Shown here in pieces: positions 2,821 through 13,491 of a stretch of DNA of 64,000 nucleotides. The translations under genes and the position numbers were made by a program. The notes under the pieces were generated by a model. That model worked only from the letters and a program-made list of their open reading frames with translations. It did not search any database and had not been told where the DNA came from. Origin of the DNA: Spirochaetia bacterium (lineage in GTDB: Bacteria; Spirochaetota; Spirochaetia; SZUA-6; Bin103); assembly GCA_965203905.1 (NCBI GenBank), contig CBDBDQ010000005.1, positions 1,184,001-1,248,000 on the forward strand, given 5' to 3'. Each line of letters begins with the position of its first letter. Within the stretch, counting starts at the first letter, position 1.

Positions 2821-3975
2821 CCGGGACGCCGCCGAGATGGCCCATCACCCAGAGGCGTGACAACGTCCAGCCCTGCTTCGCCTTCTTGAGCAGATCATCG
2901 TCGACCGTTACCCGGCGAACCGAAGTGCGGCCGGAACTGGTCCGCGACACCGTAAACAACCGCACGCGGTCATCCTGCAGAGGCAGTCCATCCAGCACGA
3001 GCGGATTGTGAGTGGTAAGAAGTATCTGACGCGGCTCGCTGGCGTCCAGATACCATACGCACAGATGCTCGATGAGTGATCGGCGTTATCCACGGCGCAC
3101 AGCGACGGACTCTCTTCGTGGCCGGAAACGACAGCAAGAAACAGAGCGTACAAGGCTCCTTCAGAAGCGTCATATCCAGACAAGAGACTGCGGTCCTTGC
3201 GCATGAACCGATCGCGGAACCGAATCACGGTATCGGTAGATGCTGCTGCCGGCGAGAGTGGGAGCCGGCCTGCTGAGCCCGCACCGAAAGAAGCCGCCCA
3301 ATCGACCAGACCAAGTACATCGCGACAAACCCGTTGGCTGTGTTCATCCTGGCGCCGTTGTTTGAGCAGCTCCAGGATCGCTCGCGGAAGATCCCCTCCA
3401 GACAGTCCCAACGGTTGTCTCGGTTGGGTCTCTGGCGCGACTCCTCGCAAGACCGGAGTGGTCGGGAAAAAAATGACGTAGCCGTGCAACAACTTCAGCA
3501 GATCAAGTGCGTCTCCATGGGTGACATCGACTGCCCTCAATGCGGCCATTCCCCGGTCCGGATTGCCCTTCTTCTTCGTTGCGGGAGAACGTCCAACCAA
3601 GGGACCGTCGGGGCCTTCCCAATACTCTGTCTTGAATCTCCAGGCGGGCGCCGGATCCTTGAGCGGATTGTGCAACGAGACCTCATACTTCGCTTGCGCA
3701 GCGTATGCGCCAAAAGAGATATGAGACGGAATCTTCTCACCGCGTGTTGCTGGAAACGCCGACTTGTACAATCGTGGAACACCCGGACGTACGCCACGCG
3801 CCAAGAGACTCTGATCGTCGACCTTGCCGTCCGCCGCCGCCGAGAGCACCCCCATGGCTTCCAGCAAGTTGCTCTTTCCGCTGCCATTGGCGCCGATGAA
3901 GACATTGACCATTCCAAGCTCAACGGTCACGTCCTCCAGCGACTTGAATGTTCTGACAGACAGGCTCTCGAGCAT
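2813..3975 (-). pseudogene. ABC/SMC-type ATPase (AAA_21 / AAA_15-like), frameshifted near 3077
   Basis: MLESLSVRTFKSL, Walker A GANGSGKSN, ASEG signature, Walker B VDNADH; then a frame change to LIEHL...QILLTTHNP...GHLGGVPDV. Confidence 0.8.
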
Positions 3976-4383
3976 ACGGATGATCCAGAAAAAACCGGGC
4001 ACCCACCGAAGTCGTGGAGGTGTTCGGGCTGTCCGGCCACAGTATACCACGCGCCCGCACCTTCCGGTTGCGGAGACCAGCCTGAGGGGGTTTGGCCTGG
4101 ACCTCGGTCGACCTATAGCTGCGGCGGCGAGTTTGCTGAGCGTGGCGATGTTCCTTGGATTGGGGCTGGTCAGCTTCGGTCTGATGCTGTACCAGTGAGC
4201 CATGCACGAGGTTTTGAACCACCCCGTAGTATTCGTGGTGGCGCTACTGTGCGCCGCCATAGCACTGACGATCCCATGGAAGCGATGGAAACGGGAGATC
4301 GATGAACGCCGCAAGAACCGGTTACGGGGGCATTCTTTGGCAGCGTCGCGCAAGCCCATGTAGCGCAACCGGCGCCGTGCGCG

Positions 4384-5358
4384 TCAACCGCCGTCGTCTT
4401 CGAACTGGGCCAGACGGCGCTCCAGTTCCGCGATGCGCTCCTCGGCGGCGGCGCGCTCGGCCCGTTGCCGCTCGTGGGCCGCGTCCTGTTCGGCCAGCGC
4501 GGCGTCCTTCTCGGCCAGCGCCGCGTCCTTCTCGGCCAACGCGGCGTCCTTCTCGGCGAGCGCCGCGTCCTGTTCGGCCCGCTCTCGCGCCAGCGCCGCG
4601 TTCTCGCGCTTCATCCGCCCCCACGTCTCGGTGACCTCGTCCTCCAGCGCCATCGAGTCCGCCACCTCCACGCTCGCCACCGCTCCCTCCAGCCGCCGCA
4701 GCACCGGCCGGTAGCGATCCGGTATCTCCCGCTCGTCCACCTCCAGCACGTGCCGGTCGCCCGGCACCCGCAGCTCCTGGTCGAACACGCTCAGCAGCCG
4801 CTCCAGGTCCGACCTCCGCCGCGACGCCAGCAGCGGCACCTGCACCACCCAGCAGTCGTGGCTCAGCGCTTCCACGAACTCCTCCCGCTCGCTCAGCCGT
4901 TCCCCGCTCACCCCGTCCACGTACTCCCGCGCCACCCGCAGCACCGTCGCCGCCGTGCGCGGCAGGCATTCGCCCAGGATGTAGATCGCACGCAACGGCC
5001 GATGCCGCCGCCGCCCGTCCGCCCCCGGGTCGTAGTTGTCGCGGTCCGCGTAGTGGCGGCCCAGGTACTCCCGGAACCGCATCACCTCGTCGGTGAAGCG
5101 CGCCTTCTGTACTTCCACCAGCACCCGCAGCCGCTCGCCGGCGACCGTGCGCACCGTCGCCGCGAAGTCCACCCGCCGCACCGTCAGCAGCTCCCCCGAC
5201 GGACCCGGCGACGGCGCGCGCATCGAGCGCTCCTGTGGCAGCGCCTGCAGGCTCTCCACCTCCTCGTCCAGCACCGCCCCGACCAGCAGACGGGCGGCTG
5301 CCTGATCGTCCATCAGGTACTTGAAGGCAGCGTCGTACATCGGGTTGGCGATGCGCAT
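4384..5358 (-). CDS. Rpn-like PD-(D/E)XK nuclease family protein with C-terminal coiled coil
   Basis: MRIANPMYDAAFKYLM, RVDFAA, VLVEVQKA, RFREYLG; ALAEKDA 21-bp repeats; paralog of 27288-28241. Confidence 0.75.
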   Translation of the reverse strand: MRIANPMYDAAFKYLMDDQAAARLLVGAVLDEEVESLQALPQERSMRAPSPGPSGELLTVRRVDFAATVRTVAGERLRVLVEVQKARFTDEVMRFREYLGRHYADRDNYDPGADGRRRHRPLRAIYILGECLPRTAATVLRVAREYVDGVSGERLSEREEFVEALSHDCWVVQVPLLASRRRSDLERLLSVFDQELRVPGDRHVLEVDEREIPDRYRPVLRRLEGAVASVEVADSMALEDEVTETWGRMKRENAALARERAEQDAALAEKDAALAEKDAALAEKDAALAEQDAAHERQRAERAAAEERIAELERRLAQFEDDGG

Positions 5359-5430
5359 CGCTCCCAAATTAGCTCGCAGGCCGGAAGCCGGCAACAGACG
5401 ATGAGGGGATCAGAGGGGATCGGGCTCTCA

Positions 5431-6354
5431 TCAGGAGGCTGCGCCGGCGAGCTTGCGGAACAGGTCGCGGAAGATCGGGTCGCGGTGGACGAAGCTGGCA
5501 CAGCGGATCAGGTGGCGGCGCCGGTCGACGCTCCAGGTGCACTGGTCGGTCAGCAGCGGACTCGGCACCAGCTCGCTCGGCACCCAGCTCGGGTCGAGCA
5601 GCCAGGCGATGGTGGCCACGTCCCACAGCACCCGCGACCAGCCGAAGTGGTCGCCGCGCATCTCCTTGTAGCGGGTTGCCAGGAAAGCGCCGAGCTCGCC
5701 GTGCGGGGCGACGTGGCGCTCGATCTCGGGGACGCTGGTGAGCAGGTGGCTGGTCACGCCCATGCAGGGGACCAGCACCAGCGGCACGCCGCAGTCGAGC
5801 ACGGTGCGGGAGGCGGCGAGGTCCTGGCGCAGGTTGAACTCCCGCGTATCAGGCCAGTGCAGGGCGTGGCCGCCCAGCCACACCACCACGATCTTCTCGA
5901 CCAGCGCCGGCTCCAGCAGCAGCGCCGCGGCGACGTTGGTGATCGCCCCGATCGCCACCACGTAGAGCGGGTCGCCCTCGGGCGCGGCGCGGCCGCGCCC
6001 GATCAGGTCACGCACCGCGGCCGACCCGCTCGGCTCGCCCTCGGGGCCCAGGTATTCGGTGGCACCGCGGAAGGCGAAGCCGTCCGGCGAACGGCCGAGG
6101 CGCTCCAGCAGGCGCAGGATCTCCCGGTAGCTCAGCTCCATGCCGTGCCGCGGCCCGTCGCAGCGCTCGTTGTAGAACGGGGCGGCGTAGATCGCCTCCA
6201 CCGCGAGCCGCTCCGGGGAGAGCAGGGCGTGCACCACGGCGAACTGGTCGTCGGTCTCGTTGTAGGTGTCGGTGTCGAGCACCACCCGCACCCGGCCGGT
6301 GGGCGGGCGCAGCCGCTGCAGCCGGGTCGCCTCGGCAATCTTCGGGAACGTCAT
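5431..6354 (-). CDS. Nucleoside hydrolase (IUNH family)
   Basis: VLDTDTYNETDDQFA, AIGAITNVA, EFNL, WDV. Confidence 0.9.
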   Translation of the reverse strand: MTFPKIAEATRLQRLRPPTGRVRVVLDTDTYNETDDQFAVVHALLSPERLAVEAIYAAPFYNERCDGPRHGMELSYREILRLLERLGRSPDGFAFRGATEYLGPEGEPSGSAAVRDLIGRGRAAPEGDPLYVVAIGAITNVAAALLLEPALVEKIVVVWLGGHALHWPDTREFNLRQDLAASRTVLDCGVPLVLVPCMGVTSHLLTSVPEIERHVAPHGELGAFLATRYKEMRGDHFGWSRVLWDVATIAWLLDPSWVPSELVPSPLLTDQCTWSVDRRRHLIRCASFVHRDPIFRDLFRKLAGAAS

Positions 6355-6397
6355 GGCAACTCCCTCAGCCCTCGTCCAGCCCTCGTCCGGCGGCGGT

Positions 6398-6949
6398 TCA
6401 CCACAGGCCGACCTCCGTGCCGGCGCGCCCCAGCTCCTTCCGGTACTCCTCGACAATGCTCTTCAGCGGGTCGGCGGCGCCGAGATGTGCCTTGAGGTCG
6501 CTGCGGAGGAACCCGAACGGTTTGTTCAGGAACGCTTCCTTGTCTTCGCTCGCCGCGTAGTCGGCGTAGCTCTCCACGATCCTGAGGGCCCGGTACAGCA
6601 GGCCGGTGACGCGTCGGCGCTCGCGCTGATGCCGGGTGAGGTAATAGAGGATGTCGGCCCGATCCACCGCCAGCAGGTTGCGCTCCGCCTCCGCCTCGTC
6701 GGTGTAGAAACCGGTGATGAGACCGTGCCACAGCGTCACGTAGATCTTCTGATCGAACTTCCGGCACGGCTTGCAATAGAGTTCCTCGGTCAGCACGCCG
6801 GTGGTGATCCCTGCGGCGGAGACCACGTCGCCCACGCGGTAGGTATCCAGGGTCGAGTCGAGGCTCTTGGTCTGCGTGGATGGTACCGGTTGACCGCACT
6901 GCACGCAGTCGATCGGCTCGGGAAAGACCAGGGTGTCGAACATGCCCAT
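6398..6949 (-). CDS. Hypothetical protein with Zn-ribbon (CxxC...CxxC)
   Basis: MGMFDT...CVQCG...QTK...YRVGD...CKPC; GC-biased coding pattern; 3' end abuts nucleoside hydrolase start. Confidence 0.7.
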   Translation of the reverse strand: MGMFDTLVFPEPIDCVQCGQPVPSTQTKSLDSTLDTYRVGDVVSAAGITTGVLTEELYCKPCRKFDQKIYVTLWHGLITGFYTDEAEAERNLLAVDRADILYYLTRHQRERRRVTGLLYRALRIVESYADYAASEDKEAFLNKPFGFLRSDLKAHLGAADPLKSIVEEYRKELGRAGTEVGLW

Positions 6950-7214
6950 CCCGCCATCTTGCCGCGCCGTGCCTCACCCTGGCAACAGGCTCCGAGCGGC
7001 GGCAAGCGGCGGCGGAGCGAACTTCGGCGCCGAAGTATAGTGACGCATAATGCAAGTACGAGATTGCGGTTGTTGCGTTGCGCGCCCTGAGCCGAGGCGA
7101 GTTGCACGATAGTTGGCACGGAGTGTGTGCGGTGGTCGTTCCGTTCCGAGCGCGTCCCTGGTGCGGAACGCGGGAATGGCGGAACGAGAGCGAGTAGGCA
7201 GGCGACGGTGCCGG

Positions 7215-8156
7215 TCAGGCCGGCAGGTGCCAGCCGTTGGGGCCGCGGACGGCGAGGCCGCGCTGTTCGAGAGTTTGGAGGGCGAGACCGAGACGGGCGT
7301 TGTTGACGCGCAGGCGTTGCCGCAGGGCGGTCCTGGAGAGCGGCTGGCCGGCGCTGCGGAGAGCGGCGCGCACCGCCTCGGCGAGTGGGGGCGGCGGGGC
7401 GGCAGCACTGTCGACGAGCAGCGAGAGGGGCTGGTCGGCGCCGCCGGAGAGGCGCAGCAGGAGCGGGTCGGGAGCGGGAGCGGAGCGATGCTCGACGGTG
7501 AGTTGGAGACGGTCGTCGGCACGCCGCACCAGGTAGCAGGCAGAGTCGGTCCAGGCATGCAGATCGGAGGAGCCGCGCAGGGACTGGCCGAGATTGCGGC
7601 GCGAGCGCTTGGCCAAGTGGTGGACGAGAACCACAGCGAGTTGATAGCGGCGGTTGATGGCGCGCAGAAAGCCGAGCAGGGAAGAGATGTCTGAAGCGCT
7701 GTTCTCGTCGAGACAATGAAGTCGGACCAGGGGATCCAACAGCAGTAGTGCCGGGCGGATCCGTTGCACGGTCTGGTCGAGAGCGAGTTGGTCGCGCTCG
7801 GTATCGAGGCGCAAGCGGTCAGCAGTGACGGCGTGCAGATCGAGGCGAGCCAGATCCAGGCCGCGGTGGCGGCACAGGTGGGCGACACGGTCGCGGACGC
7901 GGGGCAGAGCATCCTCGGCGAGGTAGACCAGAGCGGGTCCGGTGGCCTCGACCGGGAAGCGCCCGAGGGCCGGGGTGCCGGACGCGACCGAGACCGCGAG
8001 GTCAAGGCCGAGCCAGGATTTCCCAACTTTGGGGCTGCCGCCGATCACGCCGACAGCCGCGGTCGTCCAGAGGTCGCGCACCAGCCACTGGGGAGCGTCG
8101 GGCTGGGGATCGATGGCATGCACCGGGACGGTGGGCAGCGGTTTGGTCATGGCCAC
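7215..8156 (-). CDS. AAA_25 / RepA-like (RecA-fold) ATPase, possible helicase, with short helical C-terminal domain
   Basis: Walker A GGSPKVGKS, YLAED, LLLLDPL, DENS, LVHH..K, LRGSS. Confidence 0.85.
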   Translation of the reverse strand: MAMTKPLPTVPVHAIDPQPDAPQWLVRDLWTTAAVGVIGGSPKVGKSWLGLDLAVSVASGTPALGRFPVEATGPALVYLAEDALPRVRDRVAHLCRHRGLDLARLDLHAVTADRLRLDTERDQLALDQTVQRIRPALLLLDPLVRLHCLDENSASDISSLLGFLRAINRRYQLAVVLVHHLAKRSRRNLGQSLRGSSDLHAWTDSACYLVRRADDRLQLTVEHRSAPAPDPLLLRLSGGADQPLSLLVDSAAAPPPPLAEAVRAALRSAGQPLSRTALRQRLRVNNARLGLALQTLEQRGLAVRGPNGWHLPA

Positions 8157-8950
8157 AGGTACTTGCGAGCGGCGATCACGTCACCGGCACTGACGGTGGT
8201 GGCGGGGGTCTTGGCGGCGTGGTGCAGCGCCGCCAGAGCCAAGCGGTCGATGGCGCGCAGGTTGCCGCGGCTCATCTCGAAGATGGTTTCCTGAGCGTCG
8301 TCGTCGAAGGGATTGGTGCGAGCGCCGGCGAGGGTGCAGCGATGTTCGAGGTAGGCGCGGGTCTCATCGCGGGACAGCAGGCGCAGTTCGGCGTAATGCG
8401 CCAGGCGCTGCGCGATGGCGGCTTGTTCGGGGCGTCGCAGGAGCAGTCTCAGGTGTGGCTGGCCGGCGAGCACGAGGGACACGACGAGGCGCGAATCCAT
8501 GGAGAAGCTGGTCAGGAGGCGCAGCATGGCCAACGCTTCGGGGCGCAGGTCATGGGCCTCGTCAAGCAGGATGACCGGGCGCATGCCGTCGCTGGCGGTG
8601 TGTTCGAAAGCGTCCTGCAGCTTGCGCACCAGAGCGGGATAGATGCCGGTGGGAGAGAGGCCGCAGGCGACCGCGATTTCCTTGCACAGGTCACGCTTGG
8701 AGAGGCCGGTGACCTTGACGTAATGGACCTGGAAGCGCACCTCCGGCAGAGCGGCGACGAGCATGCGCAAGGCGACGGTCTTGCCGGTGCCGGCGGGAGC
8801 GATGAGGGCGGCGCTCATGCGCTCCTGCACCGCCGCGGTGAGTGCGGCGGCGACCTGGGCCTGAGGTTCGAGCGGAAAGCACTCGCGCACGGTCAACTCG
8901 CGGGTAAAGGGGGTCTTGCGAAAGCCCAGTGGGCTGAGGTCGTGGCTCAT
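8147..8950 (-). CDS. ExeA/TnsC-like AAA+ transposition ATPase
   Basis: MSHDLSPLGFRKTPF, Walker A APAGTGKT, Walker B ILLDEAH, LAGQP, SRGNLRAI; ATG overlaps transposase stop. Confidence 0.9.
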   Translation of the reverse strand: MSHDLSPLGFRKTPFTRELTVRECFPLEPQAQVAAALTAAVQERMSAALIAPAGTGKTVALRMLVAALPEVRFQVHYVKVTGLSKRDLCKEIAVACGLSPTGIYPALVRKLQDAFEHTASDGMRPVILLDEAHDLRPEALAMLRLLTSFSMDSRLVVSLVLAGQPHLRLLLRRPEQAAIAQRLAHYAELRLLSRDETRAYLEHRCTLAGARTNPFDDDAQETIFEMSRGNLRAIDRLALAALHHAAKTPATTVSAGDVIAARKYLWP

Positions 8951-10341
8951 GGCTGCTGCTCCTGGTCCTGTTGGTTGTCGTGCGGGTCGCGGTAGCCGCC
9001 GTCGGGGTCGACCAGCGGGCGGGTGTCGTTGGCGTAGGCGATGCCGGCCGCAGTGGCGGGGAGTTCCGCGCCGTCCTCGTCGGCGCTCGGTTGCGGCGCG
9101 CTGCCGGAGCCGCGCGGTGAGGTCGCGTTGGCGTGAGGATCCAGTTCGGCCAGCTCGATCATGCGCCCCTGATGCTGAACCCACAGCCGCCCGTCGAGTA
9201 CGTGGCGCGCCACCTCGACCCAACAGCGGGCGCTGCGGCGCGGCGCTTCCCACAACCGACCGTCGGCCTTGATGACGTGATCGTTGGAGACCTTGTGCAT
9301 GGCGCGCACCACGAAGCGGCGATACAGATCGGCTTCGTCGCTGGGAAAGCGCAACTCCCGTCCCTGCTCCCAGCGCTGGCGCGGGGTGTCCTTGCCGAGC
9401 GTCTCGTGCGGGGTGTCGTTGTAGCGGTTCAGAAAGTGGCGCAGGCGCAGCGTGAGTGCCTCGCAAGCGGGGTCCACGTCGGCGGCACCGTCGAAGGAAC
9501 GCAGCACCTGATCGTAAGCGGTGCGATGGAAGCGCTCGATGGCGCCGTGGCCCTCGGGATACCTGGTGGTGCCGTGAATCAGCAAGGTGCCCAGGCCGCC
9601 CTGGACCACGGCCAGGGTGTCCTTGGAGATGAAGCCCGGGCCTTTGTCCAGGTAGTACAGATCCGCAGTGCCATGGTGCATGACCACCTCGTAGAGGCCG
9701 CGCAGGAACAGCTCGCTGGACTCCGCGGTGCCCACCAGCACCTCCAGGCCGTAGCGGGTGGCATCGTCGAGGAAGAACAGCGCCACCCGCCGCCGCCGCG
9801 CCGCGCCGGCGCGGAAGTGCTTGCCGTCGGCAAGCACGCACTGCATGCGCTCGGCATAGCGCCAGCGCCGCGTGTCCGCTTCGTGTTTGTGCGGTCGCCG
9901 GCGCGTCGGCAGGCCCATCCGCCGACAGGCGCGCCACACGGTAGTGCGGTCGATCCTGGCGTCGACCGGGATGATGCCGCGCTCGCGCGCTCGGCGCACC
10001 AGTTCCGGTGTCGAGGCGCGCGCATCACGTTGCTTCTCGGTACGCAGAAAGGTGACCAGTTGCGGACTCAGTGCCAGTGAGGTGGTGGTCAGGGTGCGCT
10101 GCTGCGGCTCCAGCGCGGTGAGCTTGTCGCTCGCCCAGGCTGCGCGCCAGCGTTGCAGGGTACGCACGCTGATCCGCACCGGGCGACCGTCCAGGTCGAC
10201 ACGCGGTGCGCGGGCAACCTTGCGTACCGCGGCGCCCGCAGGACACCCGCGCAATACCAGGGCCTCCACCTCGGCGACCACCGAGTAGCGCAGCAACGCG
10301 GTGGCCGAGACCGCTAACGGGGGACGTGTTGGATCGTTCAT
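8947..10341 (-). CDS. DDE transposase (Mu/TnsB/rve integrase-core type)
   Basis: N-terminal HTH (ISVRTLQRW), catalytic-core motifs LADGK, LDDATR, YLDKGPGF, GAIERFHRT, YNDTPH. Confidence 0.92.
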   Translation of the reverse strand: MNDPTRPPLAVSATALLRYSVVAEVEALVLRGCPAGAAVRKVARAPRVDLDGRPVRISVRTLQRWRAAWASDKLTALEPQQRTLTTTSLALSPQLVTFLRTEKQRDARASTPELVRRARERGIIPVDARIDRTTVWRACRRMGLPTRRRPHKHEADTRRWRYAERMQCVLADGKHFRAGAARRRRVALFFLDDATRYGLEVLVGTAESSELFLRGLYEVVMHHGTADLYYLDKGPGFISKDTLAVVQGGLGTLLIHGTTRYPEGHGAIERFHRTAYDQVLRSFDGAADVDPACEALTLRLRHFLNRYNDTPHETLGKDTPRQRWEQGRELRFPSDEADLYRRFVVRAMHKVSNDHVIKADGRLWEAPRRSARCWVEVARHVLDGRLWVQHQGRMIELAELDPHANATSPRGSGSAPQPSADEDGAELPATAAGIAYANDTRPLVDPDGGYRDPHDNQQDQEQQP

Positions 10342-10370
10342 GCGCCTACCGTAGCGCCGTACGGGAGGAT

Positions 10371-11195
10371 TCAAATAAGCGCTTTCGTGGCCGGCGGTGC
10401 CCGTCCCCGAGGATGAGCGACAACCCCCTGTTCCCGCGCCTCGGAACGGTCAATCGCGGCCACTATCCAGCTCTTGCCGGTCTGCTCCCAACGCGCCACC
10501 AGCCGCGGACGCGGTGGCCCCCACAGGTCGCTGACCGCACCAGCCGCAGCCATGCGGTCACCCAGCGTCGCGCTGACCGCCAGCGCCAGCAGCACCGCCA
10601 TGATCGCTGCGCCGCGGCGCTGCCAACTGCGCCCCCAGCGCTGCGCCTCCGCGAGCACGGTCATGGTCGCCACTCCCAGCCGCGTCGCGATCTGCTCTCG
10701 CTGCCGCTGGTCCAACTCCGGGCTGACCCCGGTCAACCGACCGGCCAGCTCCAGGCGCCGTCCCTGGATACGCCGGCAGGGCGTACTCAACGCTTGCCAC
10801 CAATGCTGCTCAGCTGGCCACAGCTTCCCCTGCTTCGCATCCTGCGCGGCCCCGAACAGCGTCACCTGCCACTGCGGTCGTTTGCCGGTTGCGTCCAACA
10901 GCACGTCTCCGCCTGCGCTGTAGGGCACCACCGCCACGCGTCCGTAGGGGTAGTGTCCGGGCGGATACAGGGTGTAGCGCCGGCCCCCATGCACCCCGCA
11001 CCCCACCACCGCTAGCGGATAGCGGGGCCCGGTCTTGCGCTCGCGGTAATGATCGACGAAGATGGCACACGTCTGCTCCCCCGTGGCGTAGACACACCGC
11101 GACGGCAGCACGGCGCGCAAGGTTCCGTCCTGATCCGCCTGGTAGTTCGTCGTCGCGAACGGGAGCGCGTGTGCCTCGGTTGCACCCTCGGACAC
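10371..11195 (-). CDS. Transposon accessory protein of unknown function (Cys/His-containing)
   Basis: First ORF inside the IRs and co-oriented with transposase; C/H residues and YTLYPPGHYPY motif. Confidence 0.65.
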   Translation of the reverse strand: MSEGATEAHALPFATTNYQADQDGTLRAVLPSRCVYATGEQTCAIFVDHYRERKTGPRYPLAVVGCGVHGGRRYTLYPPGHYPYGRVAVVPYSAGGDVLLDATGKRPQWQVTLFGAAQDAKQGKLWPAEQHWWQALSTPCRRIQGRRLELAGRLTGVSPELDQRQREQIATRLGVATMTVLAEAQRWGRSWQRRGAAIMAVLLALAVSATLGDRMAAAGAVSDLWGPPRPRLVARWEQTGKSWIVAAIDRSEAREQGVVAHPRGRAPPATKALI

Positions 11196-11544
11196 TCGCT
11201 GCCTCTCGTGCCTCGGCGGGCGGTTGTCTTCCGCTCGCCGAGGCCGCCTAAAAGTGAAGCCCGCAGCATTTACCTGCTGCGGGCTTCACACTTTACGCCC
11301 CTGTCGCTCCTCCGCCTACGTCATCGTCACTGCAACCGGTACGCCCTCACCCCGCCCTTGGGCGCGCAACGCAATAGCGGTGTTGCGACCCGGAGAGTTC
11401 ATTCGACGAATCAGGAGTGATGCAACCCACAGGCATTCGCGGAGGCTCTCGCAGCCGTTGCCGACGCTCCGGCGGAGGTTGCGGACCTGATGAACGGCCG
11501 ATGGCGCCTTGCGCAGCGCGGCGCGCGAGACGCACTATAGGGGC

Positions 11545-13491
<1,947 letters not shown>

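Follow-up and report, generated by a model that had tools for sequence, protein, structure and literature searches.

The DNA analysed here (the window, 64,000 nucleotides of contig CBDBDQ010000005.1 in the Spirochaetia bacterium assembly GCA_965203905.1) carries at 7071-11376 an element of 4306 bp whose inverted repeats end in TGT/TAT and which is flanked by a 5-bp duplication, GCGGT. Its interior is filled by four co-oriented, intact open reading frames (ORFs) on the minus strand, at 11195-10371, 10341-8947, 8950-8147 and 8150-7215, which we number genes 1 to 4 in this order and which encode 274, 464, 267 and 311 amino acids (aa), respectively. Gene 2 encodes a transposase, gene 3 an AAA+ ATPase and gene 4, hereafter the AAA_25 gene after its Pfam family, a RepA-like ATPase; this last gene and the palindrome that follows it are the main subject of this analysis. 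The features of the element are listed below.

7066-7070, unstranded: left copy of the target-site duplication, GCGGT; the same pentamer lies at 11377-11381, and other genomic copies carry other pentamers
7071-7101, unstranded: left terminal inverted repeat, on the AAA_25 side; begins TGTTGCGTTGCGCGCCC (7071-7087), with the imperfect repeat running on to 7101
7137-7186, unstranded: palindrome that goes with the AAA_25 gene; lies between the stop of this gene and the left terminus, 66-116 bp from the latter
7215-8150, minus strand: gene 4, RepA-like RecA-fold ATPase (Pfam AAA_25, E 8.4e-34) with a C-terminal winged helix, 311 aa
8147-8950, minus strand: gene 3, TnsC/MuB-like AAA+ ATPase (Pfam AAA_22, E 1.3e-21), 267 aa
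8947-10341, minus strand: gene 2, rve-type DDE transposase of the TnsB/MuA type with N-terminal helix-turn-helix (HTH) domains, 464 aa
10371-11195, minus strand: gene 1, protein without family assignment, 274 aa; a beta domain resembling a CCCH zinc ribbon at the N terminus precedes a helical domain that includes an HTH-like stretch
11254-11289, minus strand: perfect hairpin with a 15-bp stem, situated between gene 1 and the right terminus; TTTT follows it on the gene strand
11346-11376, unstranded: right terminal inverted repeat, on the gene 1 side; ends ...GGGCGCGCAACGCAATA, which reads TATTGCG inward, with an inner TGCAAC at 11331-11336
11377-11381, unstranded: right copy of the target-site duplication, GCGGT, matching the left pentamer

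The element and its transposition machinery

The genes are tightly packed, with an ATGA overlap between genes 3 and 4 and an overlap of the gene 2 stop with the gene 3 start, and the element carries no cargo gene. Re-reading of the ends, the GCGGT pair and the ORFs confirmed what the initial annotation had claimed: the boundaries are right, the duplication is 5 bp long, four genes are packed into the interior and cargo is absent. No Pfam match was obtained for six further long ORFs, which lie in other frames or on the opposite strand of the element, and the Pfam searches found no TnsA-like nuclease and no resolvase or recombinase among these six or the four genes. The window copy is intergenic and lies upstream of an acetyl-CoA-synthetase-like gene.

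The gene 2 product alone gave a weak Pfam match to rve_3 and a match to phrog_310 'transposase' (E 1.9e-24), and a profile built from 17 family members matched ShCAST TnsB (7svw, E 3.6e-10) over residues 222-455, which comprise the catalytic and following domains. Its invariant residues include D192/D193, D232 and E269, which we read as the putative DDE triad. The gene 3 product matched phrog_296 'DNA transposition protein' (E 1e-31), and its profile matched ShTnsC (7m99, E 6.8e-6) and MuB (8xvb, E 4.2e-5). The element combines an rve core and a TnsB/MuA-type C-terminal barrel with an adjacent AAA+ ATPase of the TnsC/MuB/TniB type, a 5-bp duplication, TG-type termini and repeated GTTGCR hexamers as predicted binding sites, and the original placement in the Mu/Tn7 clade proved right. 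The kinship with IS21 proposed at the same time found no support, and the IS21 family was rejected: neither an IS21 transposase (IstA) model nor an IstB_IS21 (DnaC-like) model appeared among the Pfam and NCBIfam matches, and the helper is of the AAA_22 type. The IS481 family, whose members carry a single transposase, was likewise rejected, as the NCBIfam transpos_IS481 model scored 94.9 bits against a cut-off of 224 bits and three additional conserved genes are present.

The left end of the element is composed of two GTTGCG hexamers, with an additional GTTGCA at 7101-7106, and these repeats, spotted by eye, may be the binding sites of the transposase. The right 17 nt (11360-11376) are the complement of the left terminus except for TA in place of TG, and the imperfect inverted repeat spans 29 nt with 79% complementarity. 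Among relatives, the AAA_25-side end reads TGTTGCGTTGC followed by A or G in 30 of 34, and the gene 1-side end reads TGTTACG, TGTTGCG or TATTGCG. The initial annotation had correctly pointed to TA rather than TG at one end; this is a trait of the lineage, found at the gene 1-side end in 4/4 genomic copies, most relatives having TG at both ends.

The host genome (8.0 Mb, five contigs) contains the element four times, always on contig C5 and at unrelated sites, with identities to the window element of 100% (L001, the window copy itself), 95% (L002), 95% (L003) and 88% (L004) and with the same termini in all four copies. The flanking pentamers of the copies are GCGGT/GCGGT, ACGGT/ACGGT, CCGGT/ACGGT (4/5 positions) and CCTGG/CCTGG. 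The two 95% copies, at C5 6,524,619-6,528,948 and 6,647,759-6,652,088, are near-identical and in the same orientation with 123 kb between them; one of the two bears the mismatched CCGGT/ACGGT pair, and recombination between both could account for the mismatch. In contigs of other public sequencing runs, the match to the element breaks exactly at 7071 and 11376/7 or enters different flanks there. Perfect 5-bp duplications flank seven of the 17 relatives in which both ends were found (L001, L002, L026, L048, L068, L073 and L076), the chance of matching 5-bp flanks being about 1 in 1024 per element. Collectively, the window copy is a recently active, cargo-free DDE transposon, and almost certainly an intact one of the Mu/Tn7 (TnsB-TnsC) kind.

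The RepA-like ATPase gene and its palindrome

The product of the AAA_25 gene matched RepA of plasmid RSF1010 (1g8y) at E 2.5e-6 with 20% identity. Its AlphaFold 2 (AF2) model, with a predicted local distance difference test (pLDDT) score of 86.9, comprises a RecA-type core and, at residues 256-308, a winged helix with the order helix-helix-helix-strand-strand, and a Foldseek comparison returned RepA as the best match (1nlf/1g8y, E 6e-13, template-modelling score 0.71-0.74), followed by DnaB, RadA, RAD51 paralogues and KaiC. Residues K44, E79, D80, D139, H177, H178, K181 and R192, which include those of Walker A and Walker B, are invariant among 30 sequences. With a RecA fold, Walker A/B and helicase-type motifs, the protein has a RepA/DnaB-like helicase core and is probably an active helicase-like ATPase, which is predicted to form a hexamer, to unwind DNA and to bind the palindrome. 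A complex prediction for the AAA_22 and AAA_25 proteins scored 0.00, which is no answer and was counted neither way.

A search with the transposase returned 1632 homologues at E <= 0.001, the best 120 of which are 64-94% identical and are annotated at most as 'transposase'. The relatives compared were 19 loci from species genomes and 80 metagenome loci at 44-74% transposase identity. Gene 1 lies upstream of the transposase gene in 19/19 genome loci and is present in all 69 metagenome loci with at least 500 nt of upstream sequence. The AAA_25 gene is present in 49 of the 55 metagenome loci whose sequence extends at least 400 nt beyond gene 3 and in 10 of the 19 genome loci, the other nine consisting of five contig ends (L018, L020, L022, L023 and L025), three truncated copies (L024, L027 and L028) and L019. 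The initial annotation had proposed that the element would have to be read differently if close homologues usually lacked this gene, and the opposite was found. Pairwise protein distances among 45 four-gene elements correlate at 0.90-0.94 for every gene pair, with Pearson coefficients of 0.925 between AAA_25 and the transposase and 0.932 between AAA_25 and AAA_22, and the mean divergence of the transposase (0.43) is similar to that of AAA_25 (0.42); as the sequences are related, these correlations point to joint descent and not to independent events.

The ratio of nonsynonymous to synonymous substitution (dN/dS) was lowest for the AAA_25 gene in every pair of the window copy with L002, L004, L014 and L048, at 0.10-0.24, compared with 0.15-0.31 for gene 3, 0.29-0.37 for the transposase gene (from which L004 was left out, as its transposase gene contains a stop) and 0.29-0.40 for gene 1. 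On these grounds, the cassette formed by the AAA_25 gene and its palindrome is likely tied functionally to the life cycle of the element.

On the gene strand, the palindrome consists of two to three copies of GTTCCG, a conserved spacer CACCAGGGACGCGCT and two copies of CGGAAC. This strict pattern occurs in 23 of the 39 AAA_25-bearing metagenome loci with at least 150 nt downstream and in 0 of 8 loci without AAA_25; several of the other 16 AAA_25 loci show variants by eye, such as GTTCCC/GGGAAC (L098, L100) and CAGAAC (L076), and in L125 all four hexamers read GTATCG/CGATAC with the symmetry kept. Folded as single-stranded DNA, the palindrome reaches -16.7 kcal/mol (z = -3.0) in the window and -24.5 kcal/mol (z = -8.9) in L125. 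The recognition region of the winged helix, LRVNNxRLG, is nearly invariant, and a variant helix goes with variant hexamers in L039, L098 and L102, which is suggestive only of a pairing between winged helix and hexamers. Two further observations concern this region: L116, which has no AAA_25 gene, may retain a degraded remnant of the palindrome, seen by eye, and in one lineage (L100 at about 4474-4700, L118 at about 4752-4881) the AAA_25 stop and the palindrome are separated by GTGATCGC-like units, variable in length, that are arrayed in tandem.

The position of the palindrome, ~70-115 bp from the terminus and at one end only, together with the conservation of both the winged helix and the palindrome, would suit an end-bound regulator, in which the protein on the palindrome would use ATP to govern assembly of the transpososome, the choice of end or self-insertion immunity and would do no unwinding for replication. 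Lineages devoid of the cassette still multiply, as a modulator would allow. However, the fully conserved helicase-type catalytic residues and the fold resembling replicative helicases exceed what a DNA-binding regulator needs, and in Mu and Tn7 the AAA+ partner already supplies immunity and regulation, which leaves a purely regulatory role improbable in our view.

Genomes of the same bacterial family carry sister transposases ~30% identical to gene 2 that pass the Pfam thresholds for rve and Mu-transpos_C. Five of the sister elements (L040, L042, L044, L045 and L046) have, within 10 kb, the transposase and AAA_22 only, apart from an upstream 273-aa ORF in L040, the AAA_25-less sister locus in which upstream ORFs were checked, and two (L039 and L047) have AAA_25. 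L047 contains at 2856-7016 an intact 4161-bp element with TGTCAGTGCCCGCGATCTGGT... ends and a GCAGG duplication, whose genes encode a DUF6431-like ORF, an rve and Mu-transpos_C transposase, AAA_22 and AAA_25. Its transposase and AAA_22 proteins are both 30% identical to those of the window element, whereas its AAA_25 protein is 79% identical. At the DNA level, homology between the two elements covers exactly the AAA_25 gene and ~80 nt after it, the palindrome included, at 76% identity, and the remainder is unrelated. This restriction of DNA homology to the gene and the palindrome shows that the cassette has moved, as a portable unit, between transposon families.

A cassette that transposons acquire, lose and swap as a whole, and on which the transposition chemistry evidently does not depend, could also be a hitch-hiker, that is, a selfish or host-directed module that rides on transposons and, for example, serves counter-defence or interferes with replicons of the host or of rivals. 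Such a module would hardly be expected to keep the same position while the transposase beside it diverged to ~45% identity with correlated distances, or to show the lowest dN/dS of the four genes. Moreover, no PADLOC match was obtained, and a cargo-free 4.3-kb element devotes about one fifth of its length to this gene. We therefore regard a hitch-hiking module as quite unlikely.

The fourth position itself varies. Five of the six AAA_25-less metagenome loci end at the usual terminus, and L103 stops before a recognisable one. In place of AAA_25 there is nothing (L078), a ~140-aa ORF (L099, L103, L107 and L116) or a ~100-aa ORF (L123, also L117 and L019), and the Pfam-type, PHROG and PADLOC searches gave no family match for these small ORFs. 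The ~100-aa ORF is conserved, with ...FRWYxDRELGKKNHRASIRRWMANT (for example, L123 3001-3303 and L019 3411-3719), and differs from the ~140-aa ORF (for example, L103 3762-4190).

Target selectors of Tn7-like elements are reportedly modular, and a fourth position that is variable, holds other small ORFs in some lineages and is swapped between families recalls such modules. An AAA_25/winged-helix protein might accordingly replace selectors of the TnsD, TnsE or TniQ type, read DNA structure or a host factor and recruit the AAA+ ATPase; its translational coupling to the TnsC-like gene and the binding of branched or single-stranded DNA by its RecA-fold relatives RadA and the RAD51 paralogues would fit. 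Several observations speak against a selector, however. The conserved partner DNA site of the protein lies inside the element and not in targets, and no shared target sequence is visible among the duplicated pentamers and flanks of the copies and relatives. The four host copies lie without orientation bias relative to replication (origin at ~1.48-1.50 Mb from the GC-skew minimum, with dnaA at 1,501,248, and terminus at ~5.76 Mb). The always-present zinc-ribbon protein encoded by gene 1 is a better TniQ-like candidate, and a selector role for the AAA_25 protein appears unlikely.

A possible role at the strand-transfer intermediate

MuA/TnsB-type enzymes that act without 5' cleavage join only the 3' ends to the target, and the resulting branched intermediate needs replication or repair. 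Such a Shapiro intermediate already offers a 3'-OH primer, so a helicase that comes without a primase fits there. Mu depends on host restart proteins for replicating the intermediate, and the RepA protein of RSF1010 frees its plasmid from the host DnaB/DnaC. Against this background, we tentatively assign the AAA_25 protein a role in replication or processing of the strand-transfer intermediate, a proposal that we hold at somewhat less than an even chance.

In the proposed sequence of events, the transposase would bind the GTTGCG repeats at both ends, and the AAA+ ATPase, with TniQ-like help from the zinc-ribbon protein, would mark a target with little sequence preference. Because the element encodes no TnsA-type nuclease for the 5' ends, the 3' ends alone would be cut and joined, giving the branched (Shapiro) strand-transfer intermediate. 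The winged helix would then bring the RepA-like protein to the palindrome near the AAA_25-side end, where it would assemble as a helicase at the strand-transfer fork while the free 3'-OH of the target is extended across the element; use of this 3'-OH as a primer would explain the absent primase. The element would be replicated, or the intermediate repaired, independently of the helicase-loading and restart system of the host. Such host independence, if true, would suit an element present in many phyla. Stated in full, the element would be a self-sufficient replicative transposon, which carries its own helicase and a loading site near one end, uses the fork as a private origin and dispenses with helicase loading and restart by the host, a reading that we consider possible but distinctly doubtful. 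A portable cassette of helicase plus site, if true, would explain the spread over many bacterial phyla.

A number of observations weigh against a role of the AAA_25 protein in replicating or processing the strand-transfer intermediate. The AAA_25 gene is missing, or replaced by a small unrelated ORF, in 6 of the 55 metagenome loci, and L019 looks complete yet has a 102-aa ORF instead. Sister families without the cassette are multi-copy, as in genome G004, which gave eight matches and whose sampled locus L045 shows no more than the transposase and AAA_22; the basic reaction can do without the cassette, which tolerates very different transposases and whose presence beside transposases only 30% identical speaks against a tight coupling of its protein to the machinery of transposition. 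The element has no resolvase, and a replicative route would leave cointegrate resolution to the host; nor does it have a primase for lagging-strand synthesis. Helicase function, hexamer formation and palindrome binding are derived from sequence and model. L125 changed all its hexamers yet keeps the usual helix, and co-variation of helix and hexamers is mixed. Ten of the 17 relatives lack matching duplications, which assembly chimerism across repeats or rearrangement may explain. Finally, two host copies are co-directional with replication and two head-on, a distribution that shows no bias and gives no hint of fork-coupled insertion.

The initial annotation had seen the AAA_25 gene as core machinery of the element, a view that stood in so far as the gene is usually present, co-diverges with its neighbours and is under the strongest purifying selection. 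Its indispensability was not upheld, given the loci that lack it and the occurrence of sister families both with and without it.

A second proposal made at the outset, that of an extrachromosomal phase, is so far unsupported. It corresponds to a rep/ori module, in which the element excises as a circle, is replicated by the RepA-like protein and the iteron-like palindrome and then reintegrates. A RepA-type ATPase with a winged helix beside repeated hexamers indeed recalls the rep-plus-iteron layout of plasmids, many of the metagenome contigs bearing the family are near the length of the element (4.2-4.9 kb), and portability between transposon families is expected of an autonomous module. The short contigs, however, have flanks or stop at the ends of the element, like collapsed repeats, and the element has neither a primase nor a separate initiator. 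The 5-bp duplications are consistent with direct transposition, and TnsB/MuA-type transposases are not known to form circles. Contigs of four runs over 6500-12000 of the window contained no empty-site joint and no end-to-end (circle) joint, although contigs drop rare forms. In addition, a tblastn search of 72,556 plasmids with the transposase as query returned a single distant match (26% identity), the family being otherwise unseen there at that sensitivity. An excising and autonomously replicating circle is thus an improbable, though not negligible, explanation.

Processing of the branched product of 3'-end-only joining has been well worked out for Mu only, where it proceeds via host restart proteins, and the cointegrates left by TnsA-less CRISPR-guided transposons are a practical problem. 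The element described here is a small, cargo-free natural transposon in which strong selection maintains a helicase-like ATPase together with a DNA site that matches it, and with four genes and two ends the question becomes tractable. The system could also supply a host-independent helper module for transposon tools.

Related transposons, gene 1 and further features

The closest parallels lie among TnsA-less transposons with a TnsB/MuA-type transposase. Like the Tn5053/Tn402 elements (tniA-tniB-tniQ-tniR), the window element has such a transposase followed by an AAA+ partner, a third small accessory protein, a 5-bp duplication and short inverted repeats and lacks TnsA. Unlike them, it has no ORF for a TniR serine resolvase and shows no sign of res-site targeting, its accessory protein lacks detectable TniQ similarity and is encoded upstream of the transposase gene, and it carries the RepA-like ATPase and the palindrome in addition. 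With the core of CRISPR-associated transposons of type V-K (CASTs; TnsB, TnsC and TniQ), it shares a zinc-finger accessory protein and the absence of TnsA, and its best matches among solved structures are TnsB and TnsC of ShCAST; for such TnsA-less Tn7-like cores, a replicative or cointegrate route is expected. It differs from them in having no CRISPR module and no TniQ homology that was found, in its cargo-free length of 4.3 kb, in the helicase-like fourth gene and in one TA end. In contrast to Tn7 proper, it has no TnsA endonuclease, none of its four ORFs being nuclease-like.

Its resemblance to the A and B proteins of phage Mu comprises the PHROG matches to a transposase and a 'DNA transposition protein', the profile match to MuB (8xvb) and the 5-bp duplication, whereas structural, lysis and regulatory phage genes are absent and the element has its own helicase-like gene where Mu borrows helicase and restart proteins from its host. 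RSF1010 RepA (1g8y, 1nlf) is the best match of gene 4 in sequence and fold, with a common layout of Walker and H motifs; gene 4 adds the C-terminal winged helix, and the transposon lacks a RepB-type primase and a RepC-type initiator.

The 'TnsBC' transposons of Streptomyces, as far as the accessible part of the preprint describes them, lack TnsA and TniQ, and basal members have two ends and duplications; their accessory genes include a serine recombinase, sbcCD, terminal-protein genes and CRISPR (10.1101/2024.11.13.623437). Going by that part, they resemble the window element in combining a TnsB-TnsC core with lineage-specific accessory genes, while their hosts and ends are different and the term AAA_25 occurs 0 times in the preprint text (10.1101/2024.11.13.623437). 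A full-text literature search turned up no account of a transposon that carries an AAA_25/RepA-like gene, although supplementary tables of surveys of Tn7-like elements might list such elements. The four-gene family with a RepA-like gene is apparently undescribed, as a variation on Mu/Tn7-type transposons.

Gene 1 had been suggested as a target selector in place of TniQ. The N-terminal residues C34, C43, C66 and H69 are invariant among 30 gene 1 sequences, the AF2 model (pLDDT 81.5, predicted template-modelling score 0.79) comprises an N-terminal beta domain and a helical domain, and the stretch IATRLGVATMTV looks like a helix-turn-helix. No match was found in Pfam, NCBIfam, PHROG, PADLOC or the PDB, where the best single-sequence hit (E 0.11) is at chance level and the profile gave none. 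Foldseek with the model returned nothing against the PDB at E <= 0.001, the BFVD viral library gave no match and the ESM Atlas nothing usable; the best Z scores were 4.2 in a wide VIA-align search and 3.5 in a separate PDB fold search. Coverage of the N-terminal domain by the fold searches was scant. Weak helical fold rows include LuxR-type DNA-binding domains (Z 3.3-3.7). The zinc ribbon, the HTH-like helix and the constant presence of gene 1 keep a TniQ-like role plausible, while no link to TniQ itself was found in sequence or fold, that is, in the Pfam TniQ model, PDB sequences or the fold searches with their scant coverage of the N-terminal domain. The DUF6431 model did not match gene 1; the upstream ORF of L047 matches it at E 0.0035, below the cut-off, and the Cys/His motif of upstream ORFs in sister elements aligns weakly with that of gene 1 (hhalign against the L040 ORF, E 0.045, probability 1%). 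A gene 1 profile recovered 905 clusters (50% identity) at E <= 0.001 among 1.84 billion representatives, 335 of them at E <= 1e-30, which makes the zinc-ribbon protein a large family without annotation or known fold.

Relatives of the element are labelled Chloroflexota, Gemmatimonadales, Poribacteria, Acidobacteriota, Myxococcota and others, and one transposase cluster at 90% identity (P0080) spans the labels SAR202/Chloroflexota, Gemmatimonadales and Nitrospiraceae on contigs of ~5 kb. Transfer of the family across phyla is likely, although binning of short contigs is unreliable and mis-binning is an alternative for the mixed cluster. Near-identical sequence is present in runs labelled sponge and coral metagenomes. 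Contigs of a metatranscriptomic run contain a ~92% relative that corresponds to window 7091-10319, covering genes 4 and 3 and most of gene 2; gene 1 is uncovered there, and with DNA carry-over possible, transcription is unproven. A sigma-70 promoter scan found no promoter, and an Rfam scan of the element found no family at the gathering score.

Some relatives have unusual flanks. In L011 and L014, the pentamer after the AAA_25-side end recurs at the other side, 3-4 nt off the terminus, and the flanks of L100 resemble mutual inverted copies (ATGGGGG / CCCCCAT); these may reflect chance, assembly artefact or element-driven rearrangement.

The hairpin at 11254-11289 folds as single-stranded DNA at -23.4 kcal/mol (z = -8.8), and L019 has a hairpin and a T-run at the corresponding position. 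A terminator scan left it unflagged, the T-run being too short; it is probably an inward-facing terminator and a barrier to read-through transcription from outside. The 88% copy L004 is dead, with a TAG inside its transposase gene and an insertion near its right end. This insertion of ~1.7 kb lies inside the right-end hairpin (C5 about 7,727,934-7,729,613; L004 5722-7222, L005 1-1500) and encodes an IS110-family transposase (DEDD_Tnp_IS110, E 3.2e-21; Transposase_20, E 3.7e-12).

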